Origin: Laetmonice hystrix
Taxonomy: Eukaryota
Direction: 5' to 3'
DNA: 64,000 nt
Assembly: GCA_965235115.1 (NCBI GenBank)
Contig: OZ249436.1
Location: 33,916,001-33,980,000 of the forward strand
Part shown: positions 30,421 through 64,000 of the stretch, piece by piece
Layout of the letters: each line of letters starts with the position of its first letter
Position numbering within the stretch: position 1 is the first letter of the stretch
Program-made: the position numbers and the translations under genes
Notes under the pieces: generated by a model
Seen by the model: only the letters and a program-made list of their open reading frames with translations
What the model was told of the DNA's origin: nothing
Database searches by the model: none

Positions 30421-31527
30421 GTAAGTATGAATAATTCTTGGTCTAGATTACCTTTTAAGCATCTGCATTTAAAGGCAATCACGCCATTTTAGATCTGACG
30501 TTGAAAAAGCTTAGATATTTGGTAGAAATGAAGATCTATATCTCTACTTTACAAAAACATGAAAAAAAATATATTGTCACCTTGGAAACCTGAGAGTGAC
30601 AGCACTGCCACCTTGTGGCCAATTTGGAAACCAGGTAGAACTAACCAAAACAACATAAATTCAGTTTTTTTTGGTATTTATTCGCAATCATAAATCACTT
30701 GACGACACCAGTTTAACAAGGAGACATGGATTAATGAAAATACACCAAAGAAATAAATGCAGGTGTTTCCAGGATACATATAATTCAACTGAAAAGTTAA
30801 TTTTCGGCAGTCAGATCGGGAAATCATGTACCAAAAAAATACGAAATTGCAGTAGCGTATCCCGGAAAGGCTGCGTTATATATGCACACAAAAAAATAGG
30901 GGTCACCGTAATTATTTTTTTTAGTAACACGCTTCGTTTAAACCCCGAGTTTGGCCAAAAACTGAATTTTTACACGTCAAATGTAGGAATTTCTATTTCT
31001 ATGCAAAGTAGACACATTAGTTATAATAAATGCTAAAATCCTTTAAAATATTCACCATTTGAAGATATGAATATGAAAAGGTACAAATATACATGTATAA
31101 CAAATTTCATGTAATATGTCTCCATCAGTGCAACTGTATACAGCAGATAAAATGTGCCCATATTTTACTCTGCTTTGATATACTACTAACCATTCTGCTT
31201 CACTCTGTACACATATTTCAGTACATAAGTAATGAAAAAACAGATCCAAGAGTTCTCCAAAGATTACTGAGACAAATCTGAGGCAACTTTGAGGTGGAAA
31301 CACTCTTCAATATATACCACAGCACTTGGCATTTCACGTCGAGTATAGGGTCTAGGCCTACTGGCCAGGCCCTCTTGCAGCACGTTCGACGAGCCGCGAC
31401 CCGATATGGCTGCCGATAAGCTCTTTTATAACTCAAGCTTATCGGCAGCCATATTGGCCTACTGAGATATTTTATACTATGATTCCATCTTTCAGTGGTT
31501 TGATGTTCTTTTCATTGTGTAGACGGC

Positions 31528-31728
31528 CTTAGATGCCAAAAATGACTCAGACCACTAGCACTTGCTTAGTCACCGAGGTCTTTTATACTCTAATCAGCAG
31601 TTTCCGTGGGGACCCGGAATAAAAGAGGTCCCTTTCACTATTCAGTATCCTTACTCTGTTTTCGCCGTGAAGATGGCCTTAGGTCCTGACATGGCGTAAC
31701 AACCACCATTACTCACTCATTCACTCCT
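31528..31728 (+). mobile_element. Non-coding 3' end of an I/Nimb-type LINE (or a SINE sharing its tail)
   Basis: Same pseudoknot, hairpin and (CACT)n tail as the coding copies at 56.2, 62.1 and 63.2 kb. Its upstream ~70 nt are shared with the copy at 34612-34810. More partial tails occur near 32260-32360, 51623-51737, 55393-55437, 58910-59046 and 59135-59171. Confidence 0.75.
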
Positions 31729-32320
31729 CCAGTATGACAGGAACTGAGCTAAGTAGTGGAGCAATATACCAGTAGTTTAGTACGGTCTGGTGTATAGACG
31801 CGTTCATAGGTAGGTTTTTTCTTAATGTCAGGCCCATAGAGTAAAAATGGTACATGACGGGGGTGGGTCAGATGACCATAGATCACTCCTTGATCGCACC
31901 TCCTAGGGACGTAGGCTAACGATGTAGGGGAGGAAATTTGTCTCGGTTGTAGTCCCATCTAGGGGCCTGTTGTAAAACCGCTTGAACGTGCTGGTTGTGC
32001 CCCACCCGGCTTAGTACTTACTGCATGATTGCAGTGATTGGTACCTGTGTCCAGTGAGCTGTGCTGGTTGAGGCGTGCCGGCAGGAGTACGCCGTTTTTT
32101 CGTTGTGGTTCATCAATACACTCGTGAATCTTGATTTTTTCACTCAATGACGCAATTCAAAAACTTCACAAACTGTGAATAAATATATATCAGTTTATAT
32201 TCTTTATTTGTTATCAAAAAGGCATTAAAACCTGATAAAAAGTGACATACTGTCCCAGCAGTTCCCGTTAGGACCCGGGATAAAATAGGCCCCTTTCAAT
32301 ATATTCTTTTTACTCTGTTT

Positions 32321-33099
32321 TCACCATGAAGGTGGCCCTTCCATTACTCGCTCACTCACTTCCTGTCCCGTATGAAGCTCCATTGTCCAGTAATGACTAG
32401 AGGAAATAGAGGCATTTGCTGTCTGTTTGTCCATCAGGTCTGGGAGGCGTGCGAACTGCTGGGGGTCGATGGCTTGAGGTGAGGGAGAAGTTAGCTGCAC
32501 CTCCCCTCTGCCCATAGGAGTGTTTAGGATCTTCTGGATGCTGGCTGGTGTTGTTGTGATGAGAGCCCTAGCGGCAGGCACCATATTGTTCAACGCAATG
32601 TCCACCATTTTGTCCTCTGAGAGGCCAATATGTGTCCCCTCTCGACGTATCCCCTTCAGGAATGCCCGGATGTCCTCCCCGTGCCTCTGTTTACGGGCAC
32701 AGAGAGCGTTCTCCAAGTCCCAGCGTTGTGTTACATTGGGTGTGAATTTCTCCTTCAAGGCGTCCTTCAGTGCCGCAAAATCATTTTTGACCTCATCAGT
32801 CAGATGCACGTACCACTCCGATGCCACATTTGGGCCAAAAAACATAGGCAGCGTGGTGGCTAATTTTGCCTGTGTTGTCCATCCTTTCCCGCTGGCATGG
32901 ATCTGGAACTGGGTCAGCCAAGCTGATACATCCATCCCTTCTCCGAAAGCCGGCAGTCGGGAACCTCCCAAGAAGCCATTCTCTCCGTTAAAGTGTTTAT
33001 GTTCTCCATGCCGGTGTCTGGCTGAGGTGTTCTCGATCTCAGATTATGAGCATGACCGAGTGATGATGATGGACGTGAAGCTTTACTCATGAATGCCAC
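32321..33099 (-). pseudogene. Ty3/gypsy-type gag (capsid) remnant
   Basis: ORFs 32914-33099 and 32321-32971 join across one frameshift: HNLRSR...LPAFGEGMDVSAWLTQF...ASEWYVHLTDEVKNDFAALKDALKEKF...RKQRHGEDIRAF (capsid/major-homology-like). A PBS-like TGGTGGTAGAACCCG lies upstream near 33203-33217. Truncated at the 3' end by a LINE tail. Confidence 0.7.
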
Positions 33100-34611
33100 C
33101 GAACTGAGTCAGCGCTGATACTTGAGATAATAAAATCTTGAGCCATGGGCGAATTTTGATACGGATGTTCCAATTGAAAATAAAAACCAGAAGTTCACAC
33201 CTCGGGTTCTACCACCACTTTCGTACCGTCCTTGTGTATTACTTTTGTATTGTCAGTTGTTGCTTGGGGAATGTTATGAAAAGAAAAGGGAATGGGGAGA
33301 GAAAGTTGATGACACAATTGTTGAGCTTAGAAAAGGAACATCCGTCTTTTAATCATTATCGTTCAGTTACATTGTCCTTGTTGCAACACCGTTGTGGCAG
33401 GGAACCGCATGCTCGTTCCAACATGGCAGCCCACACTGACTGGCCTGGCCCGCGCTCCATACACAAAGTATATCATCAAACGATAGTGACCTTCCACACA
33501 CGGTCCATTTTCCGGGAATATATAGATACAATAGATACAATACCAGTGAAACAATTTAACTGGTTTGGTGACACTCACCAACGCTTTAAAGGTATATTGT
33601 CCATGGTGCTGCCAATGTGACGGTTCAACAGATTGTCCCAGTGACCACGTGGTGGCCCCAGAGGGGGAAAACTTACTGGATTATCTTCCAGTCTATAAAT
33701 GTTGCACACATATTCAAGGCAATCCGGGTGACGTGAATTTCATGTCCAGAACAGTGATATCCGTGAATACACATATATATACATGTTTGTATACCTGAAC
33801 GGCGCAGCCATGTGGCCGGCACAGGGGTAACTTGGTCGCTACTAGAGTACAGAGAGAGAGAGAGAGATGAGGGAGAGAGCCTCCAGGCAGGGGCTTGACC
33901 TATATCCGGTCACGTGGGGGGTACACGAGATTTCTTAATTTGACCATTAAGTTACACAAATCCTAAATACTAAATAAGTGTGAGCAGTGACTATGTTTTA
34001 CCAAGATTATGCACCTGCTATATAGTTAAAATAAAATAGTTATGGATTTAAAATAAACACACTCCAACTGAACTTATGGTAATGGCTACCATGTGTGATG
34101 CTGACCGGCGCGCTCAGTGTGATAAGAGTGGCCGGTTCTAACAACTGTTTTTAATTAGGCCCTGCCATATATATATATACACATAACTGATTTTGAAAAT
34201 TCCCTACCACAGATCTGCTGTGGGTGTTGTTATTGGGGTGTTGTGTAAGTAGCTATAGGCCATCGGCCTGGAATATTGTTTTTTGGTGGATGCGGACCAA
34301 GAGGTGGATAGTCTCTTCCATGTGGTATGGTGTAGTCCTAGATATTGCCACAGTCTAGAGCTGTATTACTGCCAGGGACATTCTCCCCGCCAGGGGCAAA
34401 ATGGTGCTGGCATCGTTTGATCAGAAGAGGGTGGCCCGATCCACCAGCAGTAGGTGAGAGCGGTTGCTATGTAGGAGTGCTTTTATTCTACAAACGGACT
34501 TACTTATTCTATTAAAATCCTTGACTAGTTTAATTAATTAAATGTATAATGTAGGGGTACACCAACAGAAAGATCTTATTTTCTTTACACTAGCCCCTCT
34601 TATTATCCTTA

Positions 34612-34812
34612 TAGCCTTAGCTGCCAACAACGCATCATGCTACTAGCAGCACTAGCTTAGTCACCGAGGTCTTTTATACTCTTCTCATCAGTTCCCGTGG
34701 GGACCCGGGATAAAATAGGTCCCTTTTACTGTTCATTATTCTAACTCTGCTTTCGCAGTGAGGATGGCCTTAGATGCCAACATGGCATACAACCACCAAT
34801 ACTGACTCTCTC
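34612..34812 (+). mobile_element. Second non-coding LINE/SINE tail copy
   Basis: Colinear with 31528-31728, including GCTTAGTCACCGAGGTCTTTTATACTCT and TCCCG..GGGACC CGGGA TAAAATA GGTCCC. Confidence 0.75.
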
Positions 34813-35231
34813 CTTCACAGTTCTTTTACAATTCTTTGTTGAGAAACAAACTTTGAAAGAAAGTCACCTATAGGTAACTCATGGACTTGGACATAATGTA
34901 CGTGCACTAGCTGAATTTGATACTTTTGTCCTTGTACTGTGATTTGTCTGAGACTATAGAGCCATTATTTGTTCAGAACATATACACCAAAGGAAGGAAA
35001 CAATGTTCGGATATAATTTTACCTCGTCCAACACTCAGTGTATACGGTACTCGATGAGAAGGCAGGCGCATGTGTGGTGTGACATCAGTCAGCACAGGTT
35101 TTTTTCGTGGTGCAAGACATCGGTGTTTAGTGAGAGCATTTTTGCCGTTTTTTTCGTGGTGCTTTTATTTGTCTCGATTTTCTGTCGGTGGGGTGTTTCT
35201 CCCCTACCTTTTGGGACCTCCTTGAGCTGCC

Positions 35232-36508
35232 TTAGCATAGACTCCTTGGAGTAAACCTTCCCTGTTCCCTGCTCCTGACTGTCAGTCCGTTCATTGCCAT
35301 GAACAAGCAGTGTAATTCATCAATGAATCCCTTAGACAGTCTATCCAATTCCTCATCCAATTTTCCTCTATCTAGGATGAGCTGGCCAATTGGCGCCAGG
35401 GCTGCTGCAGTGGCCGTGACCACAGCCTTTTTTAACACTGGCAAACTCCCATCTGCCACTTTGGTTCCTGCACCCAACCCCGTAAACACCTCCGTGTCCA
35501 CTTAAGGGGCAACTAGGCCGGTCACATTTGGGATGGTGCCGTACACTTTGGTCAATCCTTCTTCTGATCTCCGCACGTACGGCTCTTTGCAGAATTCATT
35601 GAAGATCTCTGCCATTTCTGGGCAGATCGGCTTCCCTGCCCGATCTCCAGTCAGTGTTTTCTCACGTTGGGTTTTGATCAACTTCAAAAGCTGACCCGCC
35701 TTGTGTGAGTTAGGGTCAGTGAAATAATGGGGGTGTGTTACTTGTGGCAGGCGCTGTTTAATCTCATGGACAATGATCTGCAAAAACTGAAAAGACACCA
35801 AGATAATGGTGCCTGTTGTAACGGAGTTGGCTTTTCCTAATGGAGTGGAATTTGCCGCCGTCACAAATAAGACTCAGGTTGTTGTTGTTCACAAACTCCT
35901 CAATGGAGGATATCCGAGGATTCTGCATTTGCAGGGTCCGTGGCAGGGGAGATCGGCATGTACATGTTTTCCAAAACCGGCATCGGAGACGGCGACACCG
36001 GGTGGTATGGACCTGGGGAAACTGGCGTTAGCCTTGGTGGCCCCACTGGTGTTGGCCTTGGTGGTCCCACTGGTGTTGGGCCATAGACCGGTGAGGGCTC
36101 CGTCGGCGTCGGTGTCGTCGGGCCATAGATTGACGAGGGCTCCCAGTCCATCAGCATCTGGAGGACCTCCGGATAGTTGCCGAAGTCCGGAATTGGACTT
36201 CCCCCACTAGCCGGTTGAGCAGCTGAACTTGCACCCGCCCGCGGCGTCGTCTCTCCCGCCGTGGTCGTTTCCTCAGCATCCATCTTCTGGGGAGGCTTGG
36301 GTGGGGGAAAGTTCTCATCCGCCAGTGCTAACCTCAGGGCCTGCGCCTGGCTTTGGGTGATATTAAGGTGGGCTATGTCGGCTTCTGTCATAGCATTGAG
36401 GATTGACACCTCTGTGAAGTCCTCCTTCGATAGGGCATCTGTCTTTTTCCTTTTCAGGAGGTGCTTGGTTGCCAAATCCAACAAAACAAGGGGAGGTTCT
36501 TTGGCCAT
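35232..36508 (-). pseudogene. Decayed DIRS-order retrotransposon ORF1/gag-like gene with a SAM-like N terminus
   Basis: N-terminal DALSKEDFTEVSILNAMTEADIAHLNITQSQAQALR (SAM-like), a Pro-rich linker and a C-terminal GKPICPEMAEIFNE...PNVTGLVAP*VDTEVF...KVADGSL pattern typical of DIRS ORF1. It has internal stops and a 117-bp foreign segment. Confidence 0.55.
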
Positions 36509-36680
36509 TTTGGGCTGCTGAAGAAAATATCAGAGACAGTTGTGCTGACAAACAGTCTCTCCGCACGGACTGCTTGCTGAAGGGTCACTGCCCGAGCAGC
36601 TGTGTTCTTGCGCATATATAGAAGAGGGTTGATACCCCCGCTGGCTGCTCCGCCCTGGGGCGCCTCCAACCGTCTTTCCT

Positions 36681-37137
36681 TTAAAACCTCATTAAGGGGC
36701 ATAATGTCCCGACAACTTTGGGACGCGCTGTACAGCTATTGTTATCAGAATCAGGAGAGTCATCGTCTGTCGTGACTGAAGATTCATCGCCTGTAGTGAC
36801 TTGCATACAACTCTCCTTGGCTCGCAAACCAGTCATGTTCATACAAATCTTGTAATTGACTGATGATTTATGAAATAGCTGCAAGTGTTTATCTAGCCTG
36901 GTAACCTGGCTGCTACACTTTGGACACTTTTTTGTATGGTCGCTGGTCACTGGCATTCACCTTTCTCCTCAAAGATTCCGGGTCCAGATTGAAATATTTA
37001 CTATACACCTTTTCTTTTGGAAGTTTGTGGACTTGTATGAGATGGCGAGATACTGCGTGCACCATTTTCATACAGATGGGACACTCTTTTCTTACGAGTA
37101 TTTGCGTTTTGGATGGGTTAAAACACGTAAAATTCAA
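36681..37137 (-). pseudogene. Frameshifted ORF with two C2H2-like zinc fingers, probably TE-borne
   Basis: KECPICMKMVHAVSRHLIQVH and KKCPKCSSQVTRLDKHLQLFH in adjacent overlapping frames. Confidence 0.55.
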
Positions 37138-37437: not shown

Positions 37438-37520
37438 CCCGCTGACGGGGCGCTGTCAGTCTCTAGCCCGCTGAGGGGGCGCTAAAGTCTCTAGCCCACT
37501 GAGGGGCGCTACCAGTCTCC
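37438..37520. repeat. Three tandem ~28-bp GC-rich units
   Basis: Consensus AGCCC(G/A)CTGAnGGGGCGCTnnnAGTCTC, repeated three times. Confidence 0.8.
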
Positions 37521-37789: not shown

Positions 37790-38045
37790 AGAGAAGAAGG
37801 GAGGCTGAGAGCCATTGTGGTTACAGCACGGCAGAGTTCCCATGGCTGAGCACAGTAGCCTGTTTCTCCACCCCTCCAGGTTCTGCAAGCCTGGAACACC
37901 TGTCTGCCATGACGCTGTACTGGCCCGGGTAATTTACGGTCCGGAGGTTGAAGTTGAACTGAGGCGATAGCCAGTAGACCCGCTGGAGTGATTCACTGAC
38001 GTCTACATCTGGTGCTCGGCCTCTGTTAATCATGCCCACCGCTGT
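37790..38045 (-). pseudogene. DIRS/Ngaro RNase H C-terminal fragment
   Basis: AVGMINRGRA...LQRVYWLSPQFNFNLRTVNYPGQYSVMADRCSRL, the ADxxSR end of a DIRS RT-RH. Probably the continuation of the fragment at 42409-42820. Confidence 0.7.
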
Positions 38046-38149
38046 CGAGGGACACGCTGGGCGTTTCCCTGGTCCTGGTACGTAATATGAGACGAATGGT
38101 CGTCAGGTTGAAATCTGGCCTTGGCCCCAATTAAGTGGTTCGGCTGGTC

Positions 38150-38795
38150 AGTGAAGTGACGGGTGCCGCGTCTGGCGGTGTTCCTTCTGTAACCATCGGC
38201 ACGCGTCAGTGGAGTGGCCGCGGGACTTGTGATAAGGGCAGTATGGGCTGCCGTCCTCCGGGGGGGGGGGGGGGGGGGGGGTGTCTTGTTGGGTCGCGCT
38301 GCTTCCCTTCTCCTCCACTCTCCTTACCCTATAGCCTCGTCTGTCCCATTGCTGTTGGCCCTGGTGTTAATTTCCTGAGCCTCGCGCCTGGGATCTCTCG
38401 ATTCTGGCGAGTGCCGCTAAAATGTTATCATAACGGCCTAGTGGTGCTGACTCCGTTGCGGCACATGATTTCGTCTGCGGGCCTACCGTTTCCAGGCGGG
38501 AAGCCATCTCGACTGCCTCGGCGAATGTTGATGGGTTTTGTACTGCCAATAGGTTACTGAGAGACGGTTCCAAACCTCCGATAAAGACCGATGTAAGAAT
38601 TTAATCAGTGATGTCGTAGTTGCGCTGTTTGTGTCGGAGCGTTCCCGCGAAATCGAGAGCTGTCTGACCTTTTTGTTGCTTTAAGCCGAAAAGATCCCTG
38701 CGCTTTTGCCAAGTGGGCCGTTTGTCTCTAAAAATGTCAATCATATGGGACTTAAAAACCGAATAAGATGCCGTTGCCGCGGCGCACCAGTACAA
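38150..38795 (-). pseudogene. Ty3/gypsy gag C-terminal half (capsid plus CxxH-x4-H-x4-C knuckle)
   Basis: SYSVFKSHMIDIF...LKQQKGQTALDFAGTLR...LAVQNPSTFAEAVEMASRLE and YCPYHKSRGHSTDAC. Aligns by eye with the gag at 48450-49090. Contains in-frame stops. Confidence 0.85.
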
Positions 38796-39258
38796 AGAGG
38801 AAACAACACTTACTATTGCAGATTACCGTGGGCCCAGTGGGCCTGCTGCCCGGGGCTGAGGGTCAGGAACCCTTCCAGGTCCTCCAGGCCGCCCAGCCCT
38901 GGCGATGGGGAGGGTGCCCGCCACCATTGGCGGTGATCCCACCTCCTCTCCCCCCGCGGAGGGCACAGTCGCCCGGGGTCGAACGGTTGCCCGGCGTCTT
39001 CCCCTCGCTCCCCCGGAGCGCGCTGCCCGGCTGGACGCCGCCTCCCGCAGGTCCGTGATATACGCCCAGGCCTGGGGCTGGTAAGGTATCACGACCGCCG
39101 GCACGTCCCCCTACCAGGGGAACGGGACGCTTAGCATTATGTTAAAGCAGTCCCCTGCGTTGCTTTCACGGTAAGAGATCACAATCTCCTTCTTCGTGCT
39201 GTTAAAACATATTAAGGGTGTTGCCCCGGCCATAGTTGATGTGTGACTGACCAACGAG

Positions 39259-41357
39259 ATGGGGATCATACAAGTTACAGTCTTAGTTGTTTGGACACTG
39301 GTCCTAACGCCCCAGAACACTATTCAGGTTAATTTCTTAGACGGACTCAATTATGGGGTTGTGCTCCAGCCTTCAAAGTTGATCTCGACTGCTAAAGATG
39401 CTTGGATATACCAGATTTTTCATGTTGACATACCCACTGTCCATTTAGCACCTCTGACCAGCCTGCTGGATGTTTATCCAACAGCTGCACGTGCTCCGGT
39501 GCGAGCTTCACACCCGGCGACTAATGACCGTCATTTGCAGTACGACATGCTCATCATGTACTTTAACACGGTTCGACGGGGTTTGAACGAAACCTTACGC
39601 CAGGTCCGCGGTAATCTGGAAGCGGCCCTAAGCCTGCTTCCCAAAGACGAATGGTCAGCCAGACGTCACCCGCGAGCACCGTTTGAGATTGTATCAACAA
39701 TCAGCTACTATTTATTTGGCACAGGCCGCAATAATGATATCCTCAAGAACGCGAGGGCGATCGCCACCCTATCGCGCCAGCTTCACAGCTTCAGCGCGAA
39801 GCAGGATGCTAAACACGTAAATACTGTACATATGGTGAATGTCACTAACGATAGGATTGATCGTGTGGTAGAAGCTCTCTTAAATAATCACTATCGTATC
39901 AGTAACGTGACGCGTTATGTTAATCTAATGGCTCATGCTGTGAGAGACATGCAACGCAATGAAATGATTTCACGCCATTTACAGATGTTATTCTACACAT
40001 TATCAGGCAGAGTTCAGGCAATGACGCTGTCTGCTGTCTCTATGTTAACAGAATCGGTTAAATTCCTCAACGGAATTCGAGACCTAACCAGGGGCGAACT
40101 TTCATCAAACTTGGTACCGCACCACGCGCTCGAACAAGCACTAACTAACATTTCAGTTTTCCTTCTGGAGAATTATCCGTGCCATAATCTAGCGTTCACA
40201 TCAACAGCTTATTACTACGATAATGCGAACCCCGTATTTTCGAGACAGTTTGAAACCACTATTCGATATCCTATTAACTCTATCCTTTTGAATGCTATTG
40301 GCATACCGCTAGTTGGTTATCGCGACGATCACATGTTACCTGAACCGTGGGTGATACCAGACCCAATCCCCCCTGACGACTCATTTAATGCGGAAAAATT
40401 AAAAAGTGAAAAGTCAAATCTTAGAGTCTCTCTTCAAAAGCTTCAAGAGGCATGACAACAGCACGCCGTTTCATGATGACCTAGGCGTTATGGAGGCGAA
40501 TCAAGCGAACATTGCCATCAGATCATGGATACCAATTGGAATCATGCCAGCTTTTGCCATCGCCGTCATCGTGGTAATTATTTTACTACGACGACACAAG
40601 GCTTCACTACTTGCATTGGCAGCTCTGGGTACGCCGCAACGCAAGGTGGCCGAGGTTGTACTGGGCCACTCTACCCAACCACAGGCGGGACCGACCATCA
40701 TGCTTGATCTACACGCACCTCTCTACGCTACGCTCGCTTTGGTCATCTTGCTGACGGTATTGTGTGTGTTTTCGCTTGCCTATTATGTGTCCAGAGACAA
40801 ACCCGCTGCAGGCCTAGCACTACAAGTCTACACGGGCTCCGAACTTTTAACTATTCGATTGGGAATGATGAACTTTGCTGCAGAGACATTGACGTTATCT
40901 CTTTTGCCTCTGTTAACTCATTATGCTGTTAAACTACACCGCCTGTCAGCTACCATAACTTTGATGTGGGCATCTGCGCTCATCGTTCAACACCAATATG
41001 AATGTCCAGACGGAGGGCTGCACCGTTCTCTCGTTACCACGGACAGTTTCACTCCCAAGGCGCCATGCACTGGCGCTGGCTTCAGTCCACCCTACCACGG
41101 TGCTCGTTCGACTTCTCCGTTACGATCAGGGCCTTGCCACGATCATTAACACGGATACACCAGGGCACGTGGGGACATGGTATCATGTTCCGGTGGGGTT
41201 AAACCAGGAGCACTCTGTTCCCCTCTACCCCCGCTTGGCCGCCCAAGACGGCTACCACCCGCTCGACACGGCGGGGCCTTCAAAAGGTATATGCCCCTGC
41301 CACGGCACCGCAAGCGGCCCAGGCTTAGTGACATACACTTTTTTCATGAACATTTAA
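39259..41357 (+). pseudogene. env: Envelope (class I fusion, F-protein/errantivirus-Env-like) gene of a Ty3/gypsy element; internally deleted and frameshifted
   Basis: Signal peptide, LNYGVV motif, furin-type site RRHPR (39661-39675) followed by a hydrophobic fusion peptide APFEIVSTISYYLFGTG, long heptad helices with NxT/S sequons, GELSSNLV..HAL, YYY, then TM segments in ORF 40406-41149. Followed by a PPT and an LTR. Confidence 0.8.
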
Positions 41358-41732
41358 TCTTCGCTATTTAGAGACATTCGCTATGTTGGCAGTCTCAGCT
41401 TTATATGCATACTGTTTCGAAGTTTCGGTGAAGGCAGAAGGACATTAATTTGTGCACGCCTTCTTGTGAACATTTGCAACGCATCGTGGGAGATTTTACT
41501 CCACACACGAACATTTTACTCAGACTATGGCATGAAGTTACGAGTATATTTATTTCTGTTGATTAGTAATGAAGGTTCTCATATATTTAATATGTAATCT
41601 ATTTTGTCATGTATCTACGGTTTTACACAATCCGGATAGGTAGAAATATGTAAGTTTTTAATCGCCCCCTGGTATAATTTTAATATTACAAATAATTTCC
41701 TTCGTAAATTATTTGAAGGGGGACCGCGAGGG

Positions 41733-42408
41733 TGTGTTGGAGTACACCATTATTAACTTTTAACAAATACGGTTTTATACATCAGTTTTAGCTAGTCGCA
41801 CAATTTCCTATGTTAGAGTATCCAAACCAACAGCAAGCCTTAGCCAGACGTGCAGCAGGTCCAACTACCAAGTCATAAATCATTCGCCTACAGGAGGAAG
41901 GTTCAGCAGGTACAGCAGAAAAGCAATAACTCATCCACCTTACCAGCCCAAACCCCTCCATAGGTTCAGGTAGTGCAAGATTAGTCACGGACAAAGAAAA
42001 TCCCCCGAAAAGCTGGTAGATATAGACGCGCAACCTTGCAGTAGTCGTATGTGGTTTTACCTTGGGAGACGAGCAGACGTGGAGTTCTCTCGCTCAGCAC
42101 TTAGCTTTCTCATCAGCCCGCACTTGGGAGGTTTTCAGCATTCACCCTTTGCAATAGGAGATCAGTACGGGAACAAGACTTTGCAGATTCTCCGGAATTA
42201 TTGAGAAACGTTTCTGATTCGGACTTTCAGACATCACAGCTACTAGGGAAATTCAGAATGGGAGAAAGGGAGTCTAAACTTGTATCGTACGTAAATATCC
42301 ACTTGTGCTTTACTTCAACTACAGAGGAGACACTTGTACTTTACATCTACCACAAGGAGATATCTGTACTCTACACACGGACGGACTAGCCAAAGCTCTA
42401 CCCCAACA
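41733..42408 (+). mobile_element. 3' LTR of the env-bearing element
   Basis: Starts TGTGTTGG directly after the purine tract GAAGGGGGACCGCGAGGG (41715-41732) and ends CCCCAACA where DIRS RT sequence resumes. No partner 5' LTR was found. Confidence 0.65.
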
Positions 42409-42820
42409 TCGAATACCCATTTAAGCCAACAAAACCCCAAACAAAGGCCGATACACCACCATAAAAGGTCGTGCCAGAGTGGTTGCGTCATCCTGGTCTT
42501 GTGCCAGGGCCCCCATACAAGGGCCCCCATACAGACGAAGAATTTTCCTTCTTTAAAGACTTGGCCGGCCCAGTTGAGCCGGCCAGCCACCCGTTGAAGT
42601 GTCTTTTTACTGGCCGACTTGGCCGCCAGTAGGGCTTGTAAGTCCTCGGCCAGCCCTTTGATTTTGTCGGTGGGGAGTCCAAGTGTCATGGTCTGGCTGT
42701 TGATGTTAATCCCCAGGAAGGTGATTGCTCTCGCTGGGCTGATAACCTTGTTATAATTAATGCTGAAACCCAGCTTTTTGCACAGTGCATTTAGGGTTGT
42801 GATGCAGTCTTCCTTGGTGT
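42409..42820 (-). pseudogene. DIRS/Ngaro reverse transcriptase C-terminal fragment
   Basis: LGFSINYNKVISPARAITFLGININSQTMTLGLPTDKI...KKTLQRVAGRLNWAGQV...DLLWW. Confidence 0.8.
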
Positions 42821-43189
42821 GCTTACGAGAGTCTTTCTGAATTATCTAGCCTTCAATGGACATGATGGAATACATTTTTTTCAAAAAGGTATTTTATAAG
42901 TGATTGCCCAGTGACTAGTTATCACTCATAGGATGTCTTAAAAAGGTCAAATTAATTTTTTTATTCACCACTTTATATGGGAGGGTACTTCCCACCAAAA
43001 GAGATGTAAACTGACATCTGCCCTCCACACTGCCATGCTCCCGATACACGGGCATGCCACCGACTGTGGGGGAGTAGGGCTCCGGTTATTGGCACACAAA
43101 TAGAGAAACTTAACAATATAATATAAAGTGAAACATGGGGGGACTGAAATATCTGCACACAAGACCCGGGGTCACCACAATACCTTCTG

Positions 43190-48380: not shown

Positions 48381-48399
48381 GACTTGATTGACTGGCCAT

Positions 48400-53700: not shown

Positions 53701-55705
53701 GACAACATGAAATACCATGTCAGGAAAAGCAGCTTGAGACTGTCTTGTATCTAGAAGACGTAGCGCACTGGTTCGAAGAAGGATGAGGCATTGTCCATAG
53801 TCAAGCGTAAAGTGTTGGGACGAGTATGAAGCGTTGTCCTCGTTGACCTTTCTGGTAGGCAGGGCAGGGCTGTATAGAAATGCTAAACAATGCCATGTAC
53901 CATTGCGAAAAGTATAATTTAAGGAAGAACATTTGCAAACCTGTCGAAACGCATTATGTTAGTTACAAGTATATGTAGAGGTATTCCTGTGAGGGTGGTA
54001 CTGGACCTAGTGCAGGGTCTTTGACACACATAGAAACAGGATTTGGAGTGGTGTACAACGAGAAGGGCATGAAAAGTATTTTTTCAGATCATGCAACTGA
54101 AAAGCTTGTCAGAAGAAAAGTGGGAGTTTTTCAGGTAAGTTTATGTCTTAGTTGTTGAGCGTGTTATTTGACCATCTGACCAGTTAATATGGAGTTGGGT
54201 ATAGTGTTAGCAAAACTGCGTAGTTTAAACAAAAAAAACATCAGTGAGGACCTGATGATTTGTCAGGGTTACTGCTGACAAAGTTGAAAAATGAGTTGAA
54301 CATTGTTGCAGACATAAAGGAAGACTGTTCTTCTCCCTGGCGAATGCTTTTCCCTGTGCAATAATGTGTTAGCCATGGTTTAACGTTAAACCTCCTCTTT
54401 TGTTGCGATGCCAGATATACGGCAAGAGATTTCCCAATGATGGGTAAAAGTGACCGTTTGTACCTTGACAGAGAAGGTGTTGGTCGGTTCCGTGGTAAAG
54501 GCGCAGTGATCTGGTCACGTGGCGAACTGAGTGCGGAGGCAGATATCATGCGTATAGCGTGGGCACGGTGCAGTGCTGAACGAGAGATAGGGCCGGAGTG
54601 TCCTGACACGGTTTGTGTCGCCTGACACGACAAGTTTGTCGCCCTGTCTTGAAGTTTACCTGGAATGGCCAATTAATTGAAACGTATGCGACCCTTTTCT
54701 GTAGGTAGCTTGCATACGGCCATCAGGTTGAAATAAAATATAATTGGGCCTCTGGACGACACTCATTGCTTGCGCATGATGTGTAGAAAGGAAGGTAGAT
54801 ATGAGCACAAAATGATAAGACCGTACGCATTGTGGTCAACACGGTGGCTGCTTCAGACTAGATGTGTTTGGAGTTGGAAGAGTCCGGACCTCTCACCGCC
54901 ACGCGAAAAGACAGGGAGCGGACCATAATAACGCCGGCCAAAGCGGGGTCCGCTGAATGTCTAGACACATGGATAGTACAAAAACATCCGAGAGAAGCAC
55001 CGGTATAAACAATGATTATGACGGAAAAACGTGCTCGAAGCTTCCAAAATGACACATGTAAAAAAAAATTATCTTTAAAGAGGAATAGTGGCTAGCAACA
55101 CAAGGGAAATTGTAGCAATTACGATACGAAAGGTTTGGCTACGCAGTTATTGGTACCCATTGACGTAAATAGTCAGTTACATACGCCGTCAGCGTTTACT
55201 CTTTCCCGATAGGGTGACATGAGTGTTGGCGCCTCTCAACGTGTATGTTGGAGTTGGCCCTTCAATATGGTTCCTTATAAGGTTAATGCAGTTGACTAGG
55301 GGTAACTGGAGTGATGTGCTCACCCCCGAGCATAACTAATTGACTGGAGTGTGTGTGTCTGCCCCAACATGTATAATGACATGTCAGTATCTAACTGTTT
55401 TTGCCGTGAAAATGGCCTTAGATGCTGCACACTCGCTAAGTGGGTGGCACTCTTTAATAAGAGGGTAAGCCTCGCCCACAAAAATACAGAAAATACAAAC
55501 AAAATAAGCAAAATCCAGCAGGCTCTGTTGAGGTGTCCCTGACCAGTTCAAAACTCCACGTGTAGGGAAGTAGTTAATAAAAAAGTCAGTGGGGGTGTCT
55601 CAGAAGGCCATAATGCCCGTCTATGGAGTTGTATGCTCTGGGCACAAAAGAAAAACTGCTTTCTCCCCGCTGGACCAGTTCGACCGGCTCTGCTACTCCC
55701 AAGAT

Positions 55706-56337
55706 CCAAGATTCACTTTTGCTGGGTGCCCGGCCATGTTGGCATACCGGGCAATGAGCAAGTCGACAGAACTGCCAAGAGAGCGCTCGATACAGACGTT
55801 GACCCATGTCCAATCCCAGCCTCTGACCTCAGACCTGCCATCTGGGCTTACGTTAAGAACAGATGGCAGGCTGAATGGGATGAACAACCAAACAATAAAT
55901 TGTATCAGATCAGTCCCATCGTAAACCAAAGGTATCATCATGGCCTAACCCAACGGAGGCATGAAATTGTTTTTACTCGATGCAGAGTTGGTCATTCTAG
56001 ATTAACCCCTCCAGAATGTTATGGCTGTCAGTGTCCTTTGACACTGAAGCATCTTTTACTCGAATGTGGTGATTTTACTCTCATCAGAGAGGTTTTATAA
56101 GGTTTTATAATGAGACGAGTCTTAAGGATCTTTTTAGCAATATCAGACCAGGAGTGATTTTAGAGTTCTTGTCAGAGGCTGGACTTCTGACTCTTTTATA
56201 GATGTGTTTTGGTGGTGTTCCCGTTAGGACCCAGGATAAAATAGGTTCCTTTGGTTTTATGGCCTTATAACTCTGTTTTCGCCGTGAAGATGGCCCCAGA
56301 TGCCGACACGGCGCAAAACCACCACTACTCACTCACG
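55706..56337 (+). mobile_element. 5'-truncated I/Nimb-type LINE (RNase H end, CCHC knuckle, 3' UTR)
   Basis: IHFCWVPGHVGIPGNEQVDRTAK...RCRVGHSRLT..CYGCQCPLTLKHLLLEC, followed by the structured UTR and a (CACT)n tail. Confidence 0.9.
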
Positions 56338-56559
56338 GTGGGTATGGCGGGCCCTGGCCAGCGCCTCCTGCAGTCTGCCGTACCCCCGGTTCTGTCTGCC
56401 AAAATTCTGCAGGCGCGAGGGTAATAAACCACACTAATACGGAAGTTAAAAATTGCTTAAGCAGTGCGCTGTCAACATGGAAACATGTTAAGCAAGATTG
56501 GCACACTATCAAGTGATAGAAACATGTTAAGCATAATTTGCAGGCCTGCCAGGTGATGG

Positions 56560-58352
56560 TCAGCTTCGTGAAGCTTTACACTGCGATAAACCTTGGACTA
56601 ATCCAGCTTGACTAGCCAGAAACCTCTCCGTAGTGATGAGGTTGCCTGGTAAAGAGTCTGGTATGAAAACCGTTTGTTGAGGGCAAAGTCGTTAAGCGCC
56701 TGGCCATATGGTCTTGACGCGTCGTGGAGAAGCCGAACCTTGCCCGCATCATCCCTAATGATGGCCCCAAGGACTGACGTTATCGTCGGCTGCTCCTGCA
56801 TAACTTACGGCCGGTAATTAGTTCCTTCTTAATCTGCGCCTCTACCACTGGCTTGTTGCAGCCAAGCACAGATTTATGATTAGAATAGAAGGCTCCTGCC
56901 CAGGTAGTGTCTTTGTTCGTAATTCGGAAGCCATTGTGGACTCCATCAACAATAAAGTTTAAGTTATAGTCTTTGTCTCATGGATCGAGGCGCCACTTCC
57001 AGGCAAGCCGTTGTGTGCTGAGCGGCACGTCTCCTAGGCCTGGTTGATATGGCTGTAGCGACATCTCTCACCAAAAGAACACGCACCTTTCATCAGAAAC
57101 GGCAGCATGGTTCCACGGCCGCGGCTTGGCCGTTGGGCCCCTGTTCCTGTCCCGTGGTGCTAGTGATCCTTCCAGTGGCCCTGCCACCTGGCTTTCAGCG
57201 CTGGTGTTAGCGCTTCTGGGACGCCTGCATTGCCTGTTGATCCTGGCGCTTGGGCAGCAGGAGGAGCGACTCCAGGTGTCGCGCCGGGGTGCCCCAACGG
57301 TAGCCGTGTTCCCGGTACCTGGTGTCGTAGTCCAGAACCGAAGCCCAGTCGTTAGGGGACGCCAGTTCATGAACTGTGACGGTATGTGCCATATAATCCT
57401 CGAGACGGTCCCTCTGTACTTCACCTGCTGCAAGGAGATGCGACAATATTATATTGACAATATTATTGACAATATAAGTTTGCTGCTCCCCATTCGGCAG
57501 TCACTGTTTAACCTGCTCCGGGACGAAGTCTTTTTCTTGCAGAGCTTTACGCGATGTTGCCCTAATCGTCAAGACCGTCTGGGGGTCGTAGCCATCGGAG
57601 GCTGAGGCCCTAGCTACAGTATGACAGCTGTTTGTCATGGGCGGACCCTGTCGTACTCCCGGTGCTCACGTGGTCCTCGCTCGGCTCCCTGAGCATCCTG
57701 TCCAGCATTTCGCCTGCATTCAATAAGTCCTGTGACTGCCCACCGATATCCATGGAAGGACGTGATCTCTCTTTATCATCTGCGCCGCCAACAGAAGCAT
57801 CAGGGCGTGAAGGATCTGGTTGGTTTTCAACCTGATGGACAACGGCAGTAGCTTGAGCGAAAGCCGGGGACCCGAGCTGCCTCAGCGCCTCATGGAGCAG
57901 CCTGGCCTGACCGCCTGTGACAATGCATCGTGAGGGGTCGGGTGCGTGGTTGACTGGACGTGTACCTGTACCTCGGCCCGTGCGGCGGCGCGTGCCTGGG
58001 CGTCCCTCGGCAACAGCAATGGGTCGGTAGTAGGTGCCGGCGTGTTTGCCCCGGAACTTTGGACGTTTTGAAAGGTAGAGTTTACTTGGGCTGTGGTGTC
58101 CGCCTGGGTGGCGTTCACGAGTTGAGACACAAGATGGCACATGGTCTCCATTTTCTCTGCGACCTGGTCCATGCGTTTTGTCACTCTGCCGACCTCTGTC
58201 CGTAGCGCTATAATATTCGTGGCATTTTCTTTTACCGTCGGCTTCTTTTTTGGGCGGTCCTCTATTTCTTCTGTGGTTAGCTCAAGGTCTGACATGGCGA
58301 TAGTAGTTATAACTACTGGCGAGGAGAACTTGTGCCAGTGAGCGGTCAGCAC
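56560..58352 (-). mobile_element. DIRS/Ngaro-type element remnant (gag plus RT N terminus)
   Basis: gag pieces (MSHLLAAGEV...YMAHTVTVHELA...WASVLDYDTRYR...RWGT) followed by RT (GVHNGFRI..., LGAI...GKVRLLHDASRP..QALND...LVKLD). Confidence 0.8.
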
Positions 58353-58529
58353 TGACCGGTGAGCAGTGAGCGGTGACGTCGTGCGGGTGAGGAGTGTGTG
58401 AAAAGCAGTCCGACTTCGTGCAGGTTAGGAGTGGAAGTGGCGGGGAGGTATGAGAGAGGTGAAAGGAAAGTGCAAAAAGGAAGTGACGTGGAGGTCAAGG
58501 TGGGGTGAAGGTAGCCACTGCGTGTTCAA

Positions 58530-58909
58530 TTACAGGCCAATCCGAGATTACCCACAATGTCTGGTCGGAGAAGGGGTCGTTAAGGGTAGACCCCACCAGC
58601 CTGGAGATGTCATGTATCAAACGCAAGGTGCCATCAGGCTTTGGCACCGCAGCCAGGCTTGGCAGAATGCAGGGTCTGTCCTCCACAATAACATTACGAC
58701 CATTGTCTATCTCCATAAGGATCTGGCACTCCACCTCTTCCCTACTCCTAAGGGCTGACCTGTGGTTACCGTGAAAGGCTCCAGCATCTGCAGTGTGCGT
58801 GTTGGTGACCTTGAAACCGTTCTTGACACCTTCCAAATTAAAGTATTTATCCTCTTCCTCGCGGAGATAATGCTCCCAAGCTTCCAGGTGGAGGGTGCCG
58901 TCCGCACTG
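58530..58909 (-). pseudogene. DIRS/Ngaro RT N-terminal fragment (another copy)
   Basis: LHLEAWEHYL...EGVKNGFKV...NHRSA...VECQILMEIDNG...AAVPKPDGTLRLIHDISR...LND. Confidence 0.8.
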
Positions 58910-59249
58910 TGTTGCTGTGATATTCCCGTTGGGGCCCGGGACAAAATAGGTCCCTTTGATTTTATGGTCTTTCTACTCCGTTTTCACCGTGAAGATGGCC
59001 CCAGATGCTGACACGGCGTAAAACCACCACTACTTACTCACTCACTCCGTCCACACTGGGGACGCAGTCACGTGTCTCTTTTAAACATTGTTAATTAATA
59101 AACACCCAAAAACCACTATTACTCACTTACTCCTGAGATGCTGATATGGTGTAAAACCACCATTACTCACTGGTTACGCCTGATGCATTCAGATGTAATT
59201 GAATTAATCAAGGCATTTTGAAATAACAGGTTCTAGAATTTTGTTATCA

Positions 59250-60118
59250 ACTGGTGCCACAAAGTGTCTTGAAGTTGGATGTTTTCTGCTGTAGTACCTT
59301 CTTCCGACCCGCACTAGTACTTAGAGATGTAACAGCTTGATGGACCTGTTGAACGATTCCACATAACCGGTGTTGTGGGCATAGATAAACAATTCCGACT
59401 TTCTGTAGACGTTGAGGGACTTTATAAATTTCAGAAGCAAAGATGCAGAAACTCACTACCTTTGAATGCTCATAGTTGGGATCTTTCATACATCAGGATT
59501 CCGGATGGCAGTGGTCATGGTTATTTTGATAATGCCGAACAATATTATCAAGCATTTCCTTCAAGGTCTGAGCATTCTGGTCACAGTTTCTAATGCACCA
59601 GTTATTAACAGTGTTTTGATAGCACTCCCTTTGTCAAACAGCTGATTGTGCCATGTTTTTCCTTCATTTTTCCTTGCGCCTGAGCTGATCTTCGTATATT
59701 TCGTAGGGATTTTGGAGGTTTAATGACAAACATCCAGTTGGTTGACAGTGGGTGACCTTTCCTCTTTGACAAACTTGCTGACAGGGATTACTGTCATGAA
59801 CGTGGATGTTGATTCCACACTGGATATCATCAAAATGCTTATATACATATCCTTCAATAAGTTCATGTGGCTGTGTTATTGGATCCCTTGATCGAGCAAT
59901 ATGACCACTTCACAAACGTTTCTGTGTTTGTTCCCCAAGGCAGATCGCATCTGTGTCCTTTGAGTTCTTTCTTGTCCTATGACGGGCGTCTGTAAGGATG
60001 TCTATGCCCGACATTATGGCCTCAGTACTGGCTATTTCCTCCTCTGTAGCTCGTTTCTTTGATTCATCGGTCAGGTCTTGGATAATCGGGATGTACAGCT
60101 TCTGAATCTGATTTTGAT
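59250..60118 (-). pseudogene. Decayed DDE transposase (Kolobok/Mutator-related type)
   Basis: IDILTDARH..RKNSKDTDAICLGEQT...IHVHD...NQLD..H...GKTWHNQLFDK...CIRNC...NIVRHYQNNHDHC...DPNYE...YVESFN, read across several frameshifts. The superfamily assignment is from memory and tentative. Confidence 0.65.
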
Positions 60119-62600
60119 GCAAGTCACGCAGCTTGTGCTGGGGGAGCTCCATTGTCTGGGAAATGATTCCCAGGAAGGTAATGCGCTGCGAAGGACCCTC
60201 CATTTTTGAATAGTTGATTGCGAAACCCAGGCGGCGAAGTAAGGCGATTAAAGTGTTGACACACTCGAGGCACTCTTGGTAAGAACGTCCGACACACAGA
60301 AAATCATCTAAGTATGCTATCACACCTTTTCGTTTCATTATACCTCGGACAGCCTGGGAGAGTTCATTAAATATTCCCAGGGCCAGGCGCGACCCGAAGG
60401 GCAGAGGCGTGTCTACCAAATACTGCTTCTGGCCCGGGGTGAACTCCCACGAAAGTCCAAGTAGATGATGGTCTGTAGAATGTGTTTTGACTGAGCGGTA
60501 GGCGTTCTTTAGATCCACTTTGGCGAAATAACATCCCGGGGATATCATCTCGATCGCATCCTGGAGGCTTTGATACTTAAACGGGGAGTGATCAGCGAAA
60601 TCATTTACTGCCGAGCCTACCGGCCGGCTACAGTCATGTATTAGGCATACCCGGCCCGAGTCTTGTTTAGGTATGGCACCCAACGCTGATACAATGGATG
60701 GAGGGGTGCTTACCTTGATGTAGCGACCGTTAGCCACTTCCTCCATTATCTTGTCTTGCACTGTCTGGCGGTTTTTAGTGCCCGTTGCTGACTTGTAGTT
60801 ATTCAGCTTCACACGAGGTCCAGAGTGTACAGCCTACTGGGGGTTTCTGGCTGCTCTTGGGGACCAGAAGCCTCATCTCTAGCTGAGACGCCTGGGATCC
60901 CCACACAAAACCGTGCTGGGCCTGGAGCTCACGGTATTGGGTGTCAAAACGGAGGATGCTCCACCACTCAAACCGGCCTGCAAGGTCGTATACCATGGCA
61001 GGGTATGTGAGGTAGTACTCCACGTCTCTGCGGCGTAAATCTCCGACCTCCAGCAGGTGAGCTAGAAGGCGCATGTTGGCACCGCTCCACTCGTCCCAGG
61101 TAATATTTGGATGACCGATGTTCCTGGCTCTGACAGAAAGGCTGCCATCAGCACCTTCCGTCAGCACCATACGGTCCCGGCGGCGGCGTTGCAAACGATT
61201 TTTGACGTCCGCCTGAGGGAAGGCCATGATGGAGACCGCTTTCTTTTTCGTCGCCTTCATGGTCAGGAACATCCGTGGGTCATGCGACAGCCCCACCGTG
61301 TGAGAGCGGCGCGTGGTTTGCCTTCTCGTTTCTCCGCGGGGCACTGCCAGGCTCTCATCTCTCTCGCTTGCTGACAACCCATCAAGTTCCTCACCTGCTC
61401 TGCGGAGTTGCTCGGCTTGCTTGCGGACCCGGGCGATGTCCAGCTCATCCTCCTCGTTCGTCAGGGCTCATTTTCTCATTTTCTCGGATTCCTTGTCCTG
61501 TCTGCAAGCACTCGCTAACTTGAACACAGATCACCCAGTGATCGTCCAAATCTTGTCCAAGTTGGCAGTTCTTGCCAGTGCAAACTTTGATATTCACTTT
61601 TGTTGGGTGCCTGGTCATGTTGGCATCCTGGGCAATGAGCAAGCTGACAGAACTGCCAAGAGGGCTCTTGAAACAGACGTCGAATTGTGTCCAATCCCAG
61701 CCTCTGACCTCAGACCTACCATCTGGGCTTACGTTAAGAACAGATGGCAGGCCGAATGGGATGAACAACCAAACAATAAGTTGTATCAGATCAGTCCCAT
61801 CGTAAACCAAAGGTATCATCATGGCCTAACCCAACGGAGGCATGAAATTGTTTTTACTCGATGCAGAGTTGGTCATTCTAGATTAACCCATGTGTTTTTA
61901 TTGAAGGGGGAGCCACCTCCAGAAAGTTATGGCTGTCAGTGTCCTTTGACACTGAAGCATCTTTTACTCGAATGTGGTGATTTTACTCTCATCAGACAAA
62001 GGTTTTATAATGAGACGAGTCTTAAGGATCTTTTTAACAATATCAGACCAGGAGTGATTTTAGAGTTCTTGTCAGAGGCTGGACTTCTGACCCTTTTCTA
62101 GATGTGTTTTGGTGGTGTTCCCGTTGGGACCCGGGATAAAATAGGTTCCTTTGGTTTTATGGTCTTATAACTCTGTTTTCGCCGTGAAGATGGCCGCAGA
62201 TGCCGACACGGCGCAAAATCACCACTACTCACTCACTCACTCACTCACTCGTCAGGGCTATCGTTAGGCTGACCGGCCGTCTTATCCTTTCAGGCGCGGA
62301 GGTTGTTCTTGGTAAATTCCGCTGCGTGCTTGTTTCCACTGTCTTAGCATCAGGAGCCGGCCTTGGCCTACCGGTAGCTCGAGCCGAATGTACATCTGCC
62401 CGTGTTAAGTGGGTAAGAGCCAGCAGCTCGTCGCATCCCTCGTTCCGGAGAACTGAGGTTGTGGTTCTTGAAAGTTTGAATTCCCGTGCCCAAGAGTCGA
62501 AGTCGAAACTTGGGCCTGCCGCTGTCTCCGATGGCAGTGCCATGCTGAGAACGATGCTTTTTGAGGCTTGTTGCTTGCGCGCTGCTAACCGTCAGACTGA
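60119..62600 (-). mobile_element. DIRS/Ngaro-type element (SAM-like gag plus RT), split by a LINE and truncated at the 3' end
   Basis: gag 62543->60799 is continuous once the LINE is removed (DFDSWAREFKLSRTT...HDPRMFLT...EWSGANMRLL...WWSILRFDTQYRELQA). The RT in 60812->60119 has LGAIPK, IHDCSRP, AKVDLKNAYRSV, LPFG, YLDDF and ITFLGI. Confidence 0.9.
61469..62248 (+). mobile_element. 5'-truncated I/Nimb-type LINE with a perfect 11-bp TSD
   Basis: RNase H (IFSDSLSCLQAL...WVPGHVGILGNEQADRTAK) to the stop at 62101, then the UTR and a (CACT)n tail. TSD TCGTCAGGGCT at 61458-61468 and 62249-62259. Confidence 0.95.
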
Positions 62601-62851
62601 CGGGCTGCTCCAGGGGGACTGGAGAAGTAAGTTCCGGGTCCCCTGCAGCGATGATTGACACATGTCTGTCCTCATTTAAACATGATTAAATGGTATTTAA
62701 TCCCCCTAGTGATCCAGAAGCTCAGTCAGGAGGGCTTGGTTACAGACTGCACCGGGTTGTGTGGGGTTCATCAGACTTCTAGCATAATCAAGCCTGTTTG
62801 TGATCAGGAGTTTTCCTGCATCGTCATCGCATACATACTTCAAAACCCCAT

Positions 62852-63333
62852 GATGAACAATGGGATGAACAACCAAACAATAAATTGTATCAGATCAGTC
62901 CCAAACCAAAGGTATCATCATGGCCTAACCCAACGGAGGCATGCAATTGTTTTTACTCGATGCAGAGTTGGTCATTCTAGATTAACCCATGTGTTTTTAT
63001 TGAAGGGGGAGCAACCTCCAGAATGTTATGGCTGTCAATGTCCTTTGACACTGAAGCATCTTTTACTAGAATGATTTTACTCTCATCAGACAAAGGTTTT
63101 ATAATGAGACGAGTCTTAAGGATCTTTTTAGCAATATCAGACCAGGAGTGATTTTAGAGTTCTTGTCAGAGGCTGGACTTCTGACTCTTTTATAGATGTG
63201 TTTTGGTGGTGTTCCCGTTAGGACCCAGGATAAAATAGGTTCCTTTGGTTTTGTGGTCTTATAACTCTGTTTTCGCCGTGAAGATGGCCCCGGATGCCGA
63301 CACGGCGCAAAACCACCACTACTCCCTCACTCA
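62852..63333 (+). mobile_element. 5'-truncated I/Nimb-type LINE
   Basis: Near-identical to the 3' part of the 61469-62248 copy. Flanked by ACTTCAAAAC(C/T)CCA, a TSD with one mismatch. Confidence 0.9.
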
Positions 63334-63837
63334 CTTCAAAACTCCAGCTGGTTTTCTGTTTCCAGAAATTTTCCACTTCTCAAAACGAGCACGCACAGCA
63401 GCAGCATGATTGCAGGGGTATGTCTTTCGCTGAGCCATTTCTCCAGGGATAAGGTTGCCACTGAGCCAAGTAGAAGTGTTCATTCTTTGCTGACTTGGTA
63501 ATATCTGGAGGTTTCATGCCCAGTGTACTACCGATCTACCCTTCCATATTATCTACAGTGTAATTGAACCCCACTGAGGGTGTCCATGTGTGATCAAAGA
63601 GCAACAAGCCGACGAAAAAAGTCCGTCCAAACTTAATTACAAATAGGTGTTGCTCCTTAGTTTTGTACTTTCAGTGTTCATCTGTGAACTAAGACCAGAC
63701 AACAGACGGGTCCAAATTATTATCAAAGTCTTTTTCGTTGTCCCAACAATGCAGGGAAGATGCCGCACTGATATAGCAACTTTCTCTTGAAAGAAATAGC
63801 TGCAGAGATTCACTGTCAACCGACAGTGCAGGAAAGA

Positions 63838-64000
63838 AGCTTTATCACCATGTAAAATGTTCTCCCCAATCTGATCTCAGGCCTACCATTTGGGCTTATA
63901 TTAAAAACAAATGGCAGGCCGAAACAACCAAACAACAAGTTATATCAGATCAGTCCTGCTGTGAACCAATGTTCACAACTCCCTGGCCCAACCTAGGTAT
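63838..64000 (+). mobile_element. Diverged fragment of the same LINE family
   Basis: SDLRPTIWAYIKNKWQAE..QPNNKLYQISP. Confidence 0.7.

Follow-up and report, generated by a model that had tools for sequence, protein, structure and literature searches.

The fourth intron of an intact PX-domain gene in Laetmonice hystrix, which we take to be SNX22/24-like, is filled by a block of transposable element (TE) remnants with two opposed polarities: trapped elements of unrelated classes lie almost all antisense to the host gene, while every copy of one long interspersed nuclear element (LINE) family lies in sense. The stretch of DNA analysed, which we call the window, comprises 64,000 bp (contig C1:33,916,001-33,980,000 of a 627-Mb genome). 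The same opposition between this LINE and other TEs is found at further islands in the genome. From the layout of the sequence, we read the islands as putative one-strand source loci of PIWI-interacting RNAs (piRNAs) that would be read from a host promoter and colonised in sense by a LINE escaping them, an interpretation on which we are evenly divided.

Position and polarity of the intron 4 block

The host gene comprises 6 coding exons that join into 165 codons with 0 internal stops, an intact frame in which 84/170 columns are identical to the PX protein P0001. Exon 1 (25471..25533, +) was placed by the six-exon frame alignment to P0001; exons 2 (28673..28756, +) and 3 (29081..29185, +), which carry the PX domain, were both recovered by tblastn with that protein, the former with AG/GT ends and the latter with a match to PF00787 (E 1.5e-5); and exon 4 (30332..30420, +) has AG/GT ends and a phase that fits exon 5. 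Intron 4 starts directly behind exon 4, takes up the rest of the window (30421..64000, +) and runs 474 bp past its end, to 64,474. Exons 5 and 6, also on the plus strand, are found 475 and 1,258 bp past the end of the window (L001:475-557 and 1258-1331). Because both lie behind the TE block, the block is inside intron 4 and not downstream of the gene. It fills 34,054 bp, the other introns spanning 324-3,139 bp (3,139, 324, 1,146 and 700 bp for introns 1, 2, 3 and 5). The block is therefore intronic and not a product of 3' read-through, host-gene read-through having been named as a possible driver in the original prediction.

By tiling tblastn matches, we found 14,006 bp of TE coding sequence in 30,421-64,474 and none in window positions 1-30,420, in 200 kb downstream or in 20 evenly spaced 10-kb controls from the same contig (430 kb in total). 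The protein library consisted of Pfam-labelled frames of fetched loci, frames without a Pfam label chosen by eye, and 141 database proteins; matches overlapping LINE copies were excluded from the tiling, a library open reading frame (ORF) with a LINE tail (L023:5163-5816) having given false "Polinton" matches. The first TE coding remnants appear at ~31.4 kb. High-copy non-coding repeats are dense upstream of this point too, as judged by summed depth, so the abrupt rise in TE density first proposed at ~31.5 kb is true for coding remnants only. In all, 87% of 31.4-64 kb was assigned. DNA contigs from three runs of one sample cover 30/30 bins of 29.0-48.9 kb and 29-30/30 bins of 48-64 kb, and they bridge 5 readable junctions.

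Amongst non-LINE insertions with a readable direction, 12/13 are antisense to the host gene (p=0.003 by our own count, with three of the directions read from only an open frame, a by-eye motif or DNA similarity). The minus strand holds gypsy gag/pol, DIRS-type gag and reverse transcriptase (RT), and a DDE transposase that is Mutator-like (PF20700 in its parent); the plus strand holds an env with its 3' long terminal repeat (LTR) and an inverted integrase tail. Genome searches found parents for most pieces, namely three antisense gypsy families, one sense env-bearing gypsy, DIRS-type elements and the Mutator-like transposase, although for several pieces the closest surviving relatives are only 80-90% alike. 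The antisense arrangement with respect to the SNX24-like gene that had been noticed from the sequence is thus borne out for these insertions, as are the two plus-strand exceptions, both matched to parents. Among the minus-strand classes originally listed, gypsy, DIRS-type and DDE stand, a BEL/Pao element has no Pfam-supported piece, and the direction of a Cys/His-rich ORF is known from its open frame only.

The LINE family behaves in the opposite manner. Its copies in the block are 12/12 on the plus strand, with the host gene, and there are 0 in the other 231 kb. At the genome mean, ~0.13 copies would be expected in the block, an enrichment of ~90x (the genome copy number, roughly 2,500, counts first-look candidates). 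The LINE fragments, initially listed as exceptions to the strand bias, are indeed on the plus strand, but they are not stray. By length, ~20.4 kb of the block is antisense, as against ~8.1 kb in sense; with all 12 LINE pieces on the plus strand, it is about half sense when counted by insertion.

Comparison with other large introns had been proposed as a check on the orientation bias. Because the evenly spaced controls held no TE coding remnants, the generic intronic bias was not measurable there, and we used loci picked by DIRS matches instead. TE nests at these loci are mixed, with 11 same and 5 opposite (query element included), unlike the intron. The layout of intron 4 is far more pronounced than anything in the control sequence or in nests that were selected through other elements.

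Insertion history of the block

The antisense gypsy elements are cut down to different extents. Gypsy 1 (32360..34213, -) retains a whole 5' LTR and a truncated gag, and its break lies <=60 bp from a LINE tail. Gypsy 2 (44496..51608, -) keeps both LTRs (92% alike), its primer-binding site and its polypurine tract; its integrase core is deleted, and an inverted integrase tail within it (45034..46062, +) was recognised by its match to the parent. A multi-copy repeat is nested in its gag (49094..49913, -), its direction coming from a DNA match beside an exonuclease ORF at another locus. Gypsy 3 (51954..55383, -) consists of a whole 3' LTR and the 3' internal part, with a break that adjoins a LINE tail. 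An assignment of this last piece to BEL/Pao was tried and rejected: the pol of its parent has the gypsy-type order of protease, RT, RNase H and integrase (PR-RT-RH-IN) with no BEL-specific family, which makes the piece the 3' part of a gypsy family. The BEL label of the 54-kb piece in the TE tiling is provisional and came from a self-match.

The sense gypsy is represented by an env-like ORF remnant, a polypurine tract and a 3' LTR (38778..42455, +), its 5' LTR and most of its pol being absent; the env label is based on position and a by-eye furin-like motif, with no Pfam match. Its gag piece (38042..38784, -) is inverted relative to env, since its match to a parent and that of env fall on opposite strands. 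This element splits a DIRS-type element into a left half, an RT/RNase H piece (37842..38041, -; 64% to P0006), and a right half, an RT piece placed by a protein-library match (42456..42850, -). Further DIRS-type sequence comprises a gag remnant with patchy 73-90% matches to several relatives (34819..36711, -), two nested elements (56337..58900, -), presumably Ngaro-like, of which the inner one kept a terminal repeat but has ~2 kb missing from its 3' coding region, and a gag with the front half of RT (60114..62706, -). The last replaces 421 bp of a Mutator-like transposase remnant (59193..63721, -), which is split by this piece and a LINE and whose ends are both missing, each beside LINE pieces. 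We assume the labels DIRS and Ngaro from motifs and repeat layout; the matching database entries are unnamed RTs.

Three smaller minus-strand pieces complete the non-LINE content: a probable integrase scrap with a by-eye motif and no Pfam match (34214..34613), the Cys/His-rich ORF remnant, which has two partial relatives on contig C8 (36712..37353), and a coding remnant without Pfam or library match (43000..43960) that is possibly the BEL/Pao piece of the original prediction. A 125-bp piece is common to two separate antisense remnants (35812-35932 and 43788-43913, 87% alike).

In the big elements, LTRs, primer-binding sites and polypurine tracts are kept whole, and the elements therefore arrived as ordinary DNA-level insertions that were later cut down by deletion and inversion. 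This bears on the idea that the LINE RT itself wrote the antisense pieces, by twin priming on a second RNA that joins an antisense fragment to a sense tail and so builds a repeat-spacer-like archive. Twin-priming antisense chimeras are described for human L1 in the part of PMC13174262 available to us, and this LINE family shows 5' inversions. Short unrelated spacers of the kind such an archive would contain lie between LINE tails at L107 (C3:1149313-1152488), where four same-strand LINE ends are separated by 171-280 bp, one spacer being an antisense Mutator piece, and where we found no target-site duplications at the LINE ends. However, large pieces with whole LTRs, primer-binding sites, polypurine tracts or terminal repeats look like DNA insertions, and three LINE copies in the block have duplications directly flanking themselves. 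Distant duplications that would enclose a captured piece show no excess over a mirror control: they number 2 among 9 young island copies, where the control also gave 2, and 5 among 22 copies in domains, where it gave 4. Most tight tail arrays, those at C30, C2:16.85 Mb and C5:26.1 Mb included, consist largely of tandem duplications. We regard RNA capture as highly improbable.

The LINE, which we presume to belong to the I group, has ORF1, a TCAC tail, 11-14 bp target-site duplications and, at L066, an ORF2 of 1,230 aa with endonuclease, RT and RNase H. Intact, near-identical copies exist in the genome, and the copies in the block range from ~80% to 98% identity to their best other copy. Three of them, all on the plus strand, lie with their duplications inside antisense DIRS or Mutator sequence: the youngest copy (61469..62249; 98% to its best other copy) has an 11-bp duplication inside the DIRS gag, a 3' end at 62850..63335 has a 14-bp duplication inside the Mutator, and a tail at 58900..59047 has a 12-bp duplication with 1 mismatch. 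Because the duplications lie within DIRS and Mutator sequence, these LINE copies arrived after their hosts. A fixed target motif was not found among ~20 duplications, which share only 1-3 bases of tail-like microhomology.

The other plus-strand pieces came from the LINE search. The first element of the block is an older-subfamily 3' end with a TCAC tail (31421..31730), 82% to its best other copy. It is followed by a tail at 32240..32358, an older-subfamily tail at 34614..34818, two pieces at 51612..51950 (a tail and a degenerate RNase H region), a short tail at 55384..55430, a 3' end with RNase H and tail at 55700..56336, for which a target-site duplication was not found, and a tail scrap at 59100..59175. 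The block's last element is a degenerate, tail-less LINE piece (63743..64000, continuing to ~64,095).

Breakpoints of trapped elements fall within 60 bp of a LINE copy in 5/13 cases, vs 4% by chance, the breakpoints being self-chosen from parent alignments. Elsewhere, young LINE copies keep their duplication in 11/14 isolated cases vs 14/45 in islands and TE domains. Same-strand LINE copies probably promote deletions, and deletions between them would trim the trapped elements. A deletion that ends inside a once-longer LINE copy would give the same picture, and a role of the copies as hinges is thus not proven.

Islands elsewhere and the origin of the polarity

Opposite polarity recurs elsewhere in the genome. 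We fetched local groups of LINE matches before their other content was viewed. At nine other loci, 93/96 LINE copies share a strand, leaving out the tandem array on contig C30. At seven LINE-chosen loci, the TEs within 3 kb of a LINE copy are opposite to it in 23/23 cases (one of these a DDE match at the C30 array), and at seven further stretches in 5/6. Loci picked by non-LINE elements contain the LINE in 3/24 and 2/15 cases, and it is opposite in every one. The classes trapped in islands are unrelated, comprising gypsy, copia, DIRS-type, Mutator, Polinton-type polB and other LINEs. The nearest Pfam-recognised host exon is co-directional with the LINE at 6/6 islands and at 4/4 isolated copies, out of 40 loci scanned; host exons were sought among stop-to-stop frames above 62-122 aa (L028 was left out at the short cut-off), and many loci have no host call because the search was limited to longer frames.

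These observations suggest how the islands may work. In germ cells, transcription from the host promoter would run across the intron and produce plus-strand RNA, the intact host gene making a long single-strand precursor conceivable, and this transcript would be processed into piRNAs. Selection may then keep antisense TE pieces for the silencing piRNAs that they yield, in the manner of slug clusters and of the piC-DoGs of mammals. The sense bias of the LINE could arise at insertion, or antisense copies could be purged because in that orientation the tail reads as GTGAGT repeats, which match the splice-donor consensus. Whichever origin is correct, a sense LINE would give no antisense piRNA against itself from the islands. 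The original idea of a uni-strand, piRNA-cluster-like trap thus survives insofar as the layout fits a one-strand source in the host direction, though not for the LINE family, of which 0/12 copies are antisense.

Several results weigh against the piRNA-source reading. Polarity is weak in large TE domains, where TEs are opposite in 11 cases and the same in 7, and around the older LINE subfamily, at 20 loci, 2 TEs are opposite and 5 same (3 of them one tail-carrying Helitron family). Young LINE copies on contig C1 are isolated in 18/20 cases, with no TE island around them. GC skew follows the LINE at 15/20 isolated young copies, but at 11/20 older ones (unmasked). The island LINE counts are inflated by duplicated units, and at C30 a weak NEIL1-like match runs opposite to the LINE array. 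An env-bearing gypsy is in sense within the intron 4 block, and a second such element, also in sense, is found 4.4 kb away from the C1:67.06 Mb island. AATAAA is not depleted in sense, with 79 occurrences vs 67 antisense. Given the exceptions at domains, older copies, isolated copies and DIRS-picked nests, the islands are a minority class and not a rule for TE nests. A search of the genome for the piRNA-pathway gene Maelstrom gave no match but speaks neither way, as its control query matched nowhere either.

The polarities could also be produced without any piRNA role. The block would then be a neutral TE sink, with nesting and local heterochromatin, in which selection on the host transcript removes LTR, DIRS and DNA elements that carry poly(A) or splice signals in sense and LINE copies that carry GTGAGT donors in antisense. 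The antisense strand of the LINE is indeed richer in signals, with 8 GTRAGT and 3 AATAAA vs 2 and 1 in sense, and the sense orientation relative to host exons at the 4/4 isolated copies extends the LINE bias beyond islands. Over eight masked islands, donor motifs number 44 in sense vs 88 in antisense, 30 of the 88 coming from one locus. However, acceptor-like motifs favour the sense strand (45 vs 15), AATAAA shows the lack of sense-strand depletion noted above, and a sense LTR with env is tolerated. A sink alone leaves unexplained why coding TEs are present here and absent from the 430 kb of flank and control DNA, and why the DIRS-picked nests are of mixed polarity. We consider this account rather doubtful.

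A different possibility is that the LINE founds and drives the islands, with anti-LINE piRNAs slicing host pre-mRNA at the sense tails and phased piRNAs extending into the downstream antisense TEs. The LINE pieces that form the outermost recognised elements of the block at either end, the tails every few kb in most islands, and the ~80% to 98% identity of the copies, which makes the pattern long-lived, would all fit. Yet the 17-kb stretch at 34.8-51.6 kb is antisense though it has no LINE copy, the isolated C1 copies have attracted no island, and at some islands the TE remnants reach beyond the LINE span. This makes a founding role for the LINE quite improbable. An extension of the piRNA-source reading, which we think unlikely, is that the active LINE inserts along local transcription, would home in this way to one-strand piRNA loci and would never be trapped antisense, its tails serving as recombination hinges, and possibly as slicing triggers, that trim and renew the archive of other TEs.

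The trap model supposes that a transposon can enter a piRNA cluster in either orientation and that silencing follows as soon as one copy has landed antisense. If the piRNA-source reading is correct, accumulation in sense only would be a simple way round the trap, and many TE classes should yield antisense piRNAs from the islands, the LINE only sense reads. The LINE would then also be a DNA-only marker for finding piRNA loci and their transcription direction. If it inserts along transcription, it would be a transposon both immune to the host's transposon trap and helping to build it.

Relation to known loci and further observations

One-strand antisense TE clusters are already known from slugs, and the counter-oriented LINE is what appears to be new. 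In Arion vulgaris, most piRNA clusters are one-stranded and cover TE fragments of the opposite strand (PMC11615739), and those of Deroceras laeve are unidirectional (PMC12506671). The islands resemble them as dense one-strand TE fragments at tens of loci per genome in a non-insect animal. They differ in that piRNAs were shown in the slugs, whereas for the intron block they are predicted, and in that the accessible parts of PMC11615739 and PMC12506671 speak of no intronic position and of no LINE family with the contrary orientation. The piC-DoGs of mouse, human and hamster consist of antisense TE fields aligned with the promoter of a host gene (PMC11615739), as in our block; they lie behind the poly(A) site and hold LINE-1 antisense, whereas our block occupies a coding intron and holds its LINE in sense.

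The original prediction drew on flamenco, which, with flam-like clusters of Drosophila, selectively holds antisense env-bearing gypsy elements (PMC10643416, in the part seen). Nested, truncated, strand-biased TE remnants are common to both. A flamenco-like capture of env-bearing gypsy is not what we found, since the env and its LTR are in sense and the classes are mixed, and the block measures 34 kb vs hundreds of kb.

The I-element shares its RNase H architecture with this LINE family, and human L1 and the I-element are likewise endonuclease-RT LINEs that use target-primed reverse transcription. Within genes, human L1 is biased against sense (PMC5717806), and de novo I-element insertions in Drosophila have no strand bias (PMC10018349), both as given in the available parts of these papers; our LINE is in sense at 10/10 well-supported host genes. 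Available sections of PMC8915122 describe piRNA loci of <20 kb in the annelid Capitella teleta, some intronic and some one-stranded, like the present block, and in those sections we did not meet with an analysis of TE polarity; mollusc piRNA clusters are TE-enriched (PMC6128900, in the part available). Full-text searches of a literature collection that covers few subscription papers showed no report of a LINE family sense-enriched in such loci.

Several other loci deserve mention. At L158, L160 and L163 (~3000-5050), members of a Helitron family have an old LINE tail located behind the helicase ORF. The LINE tail has become a tandem minisatellite with units of 50-300 bp at L147:980-2800, C7:34.185 Mb, C3:14.93 Mb and C2:38.43 Mb. 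Two antisense Polinton-type polB copies are found at L022-L023 (C1:67.057-67.071 Mb), one with a LINE tail and the other with the empty site. At L021:2899-5748, a zinc-knuckle gag is followed directly by a Baculo_F-like env ORF, without pol between them and with SprT-bearing repeats on the flanks. L089 is a tandem array whose units measure ~2.1-2.5 kb, with a frame that resembles a His-Me endonuclease.

Within the window, a Pfam scan found two plus-strand genes, one RhoGAP-bearing and the PX-domain gene. Minus-strand exon-like stretches seen by eye at 17000-18500 may be a small gene between them. Intron 3 of the PX gene contains a 917-bp element with 31-bp inverted ends (29194-30116). In each of the three runs a contig skips this element, which is therefore probably heterozygous.

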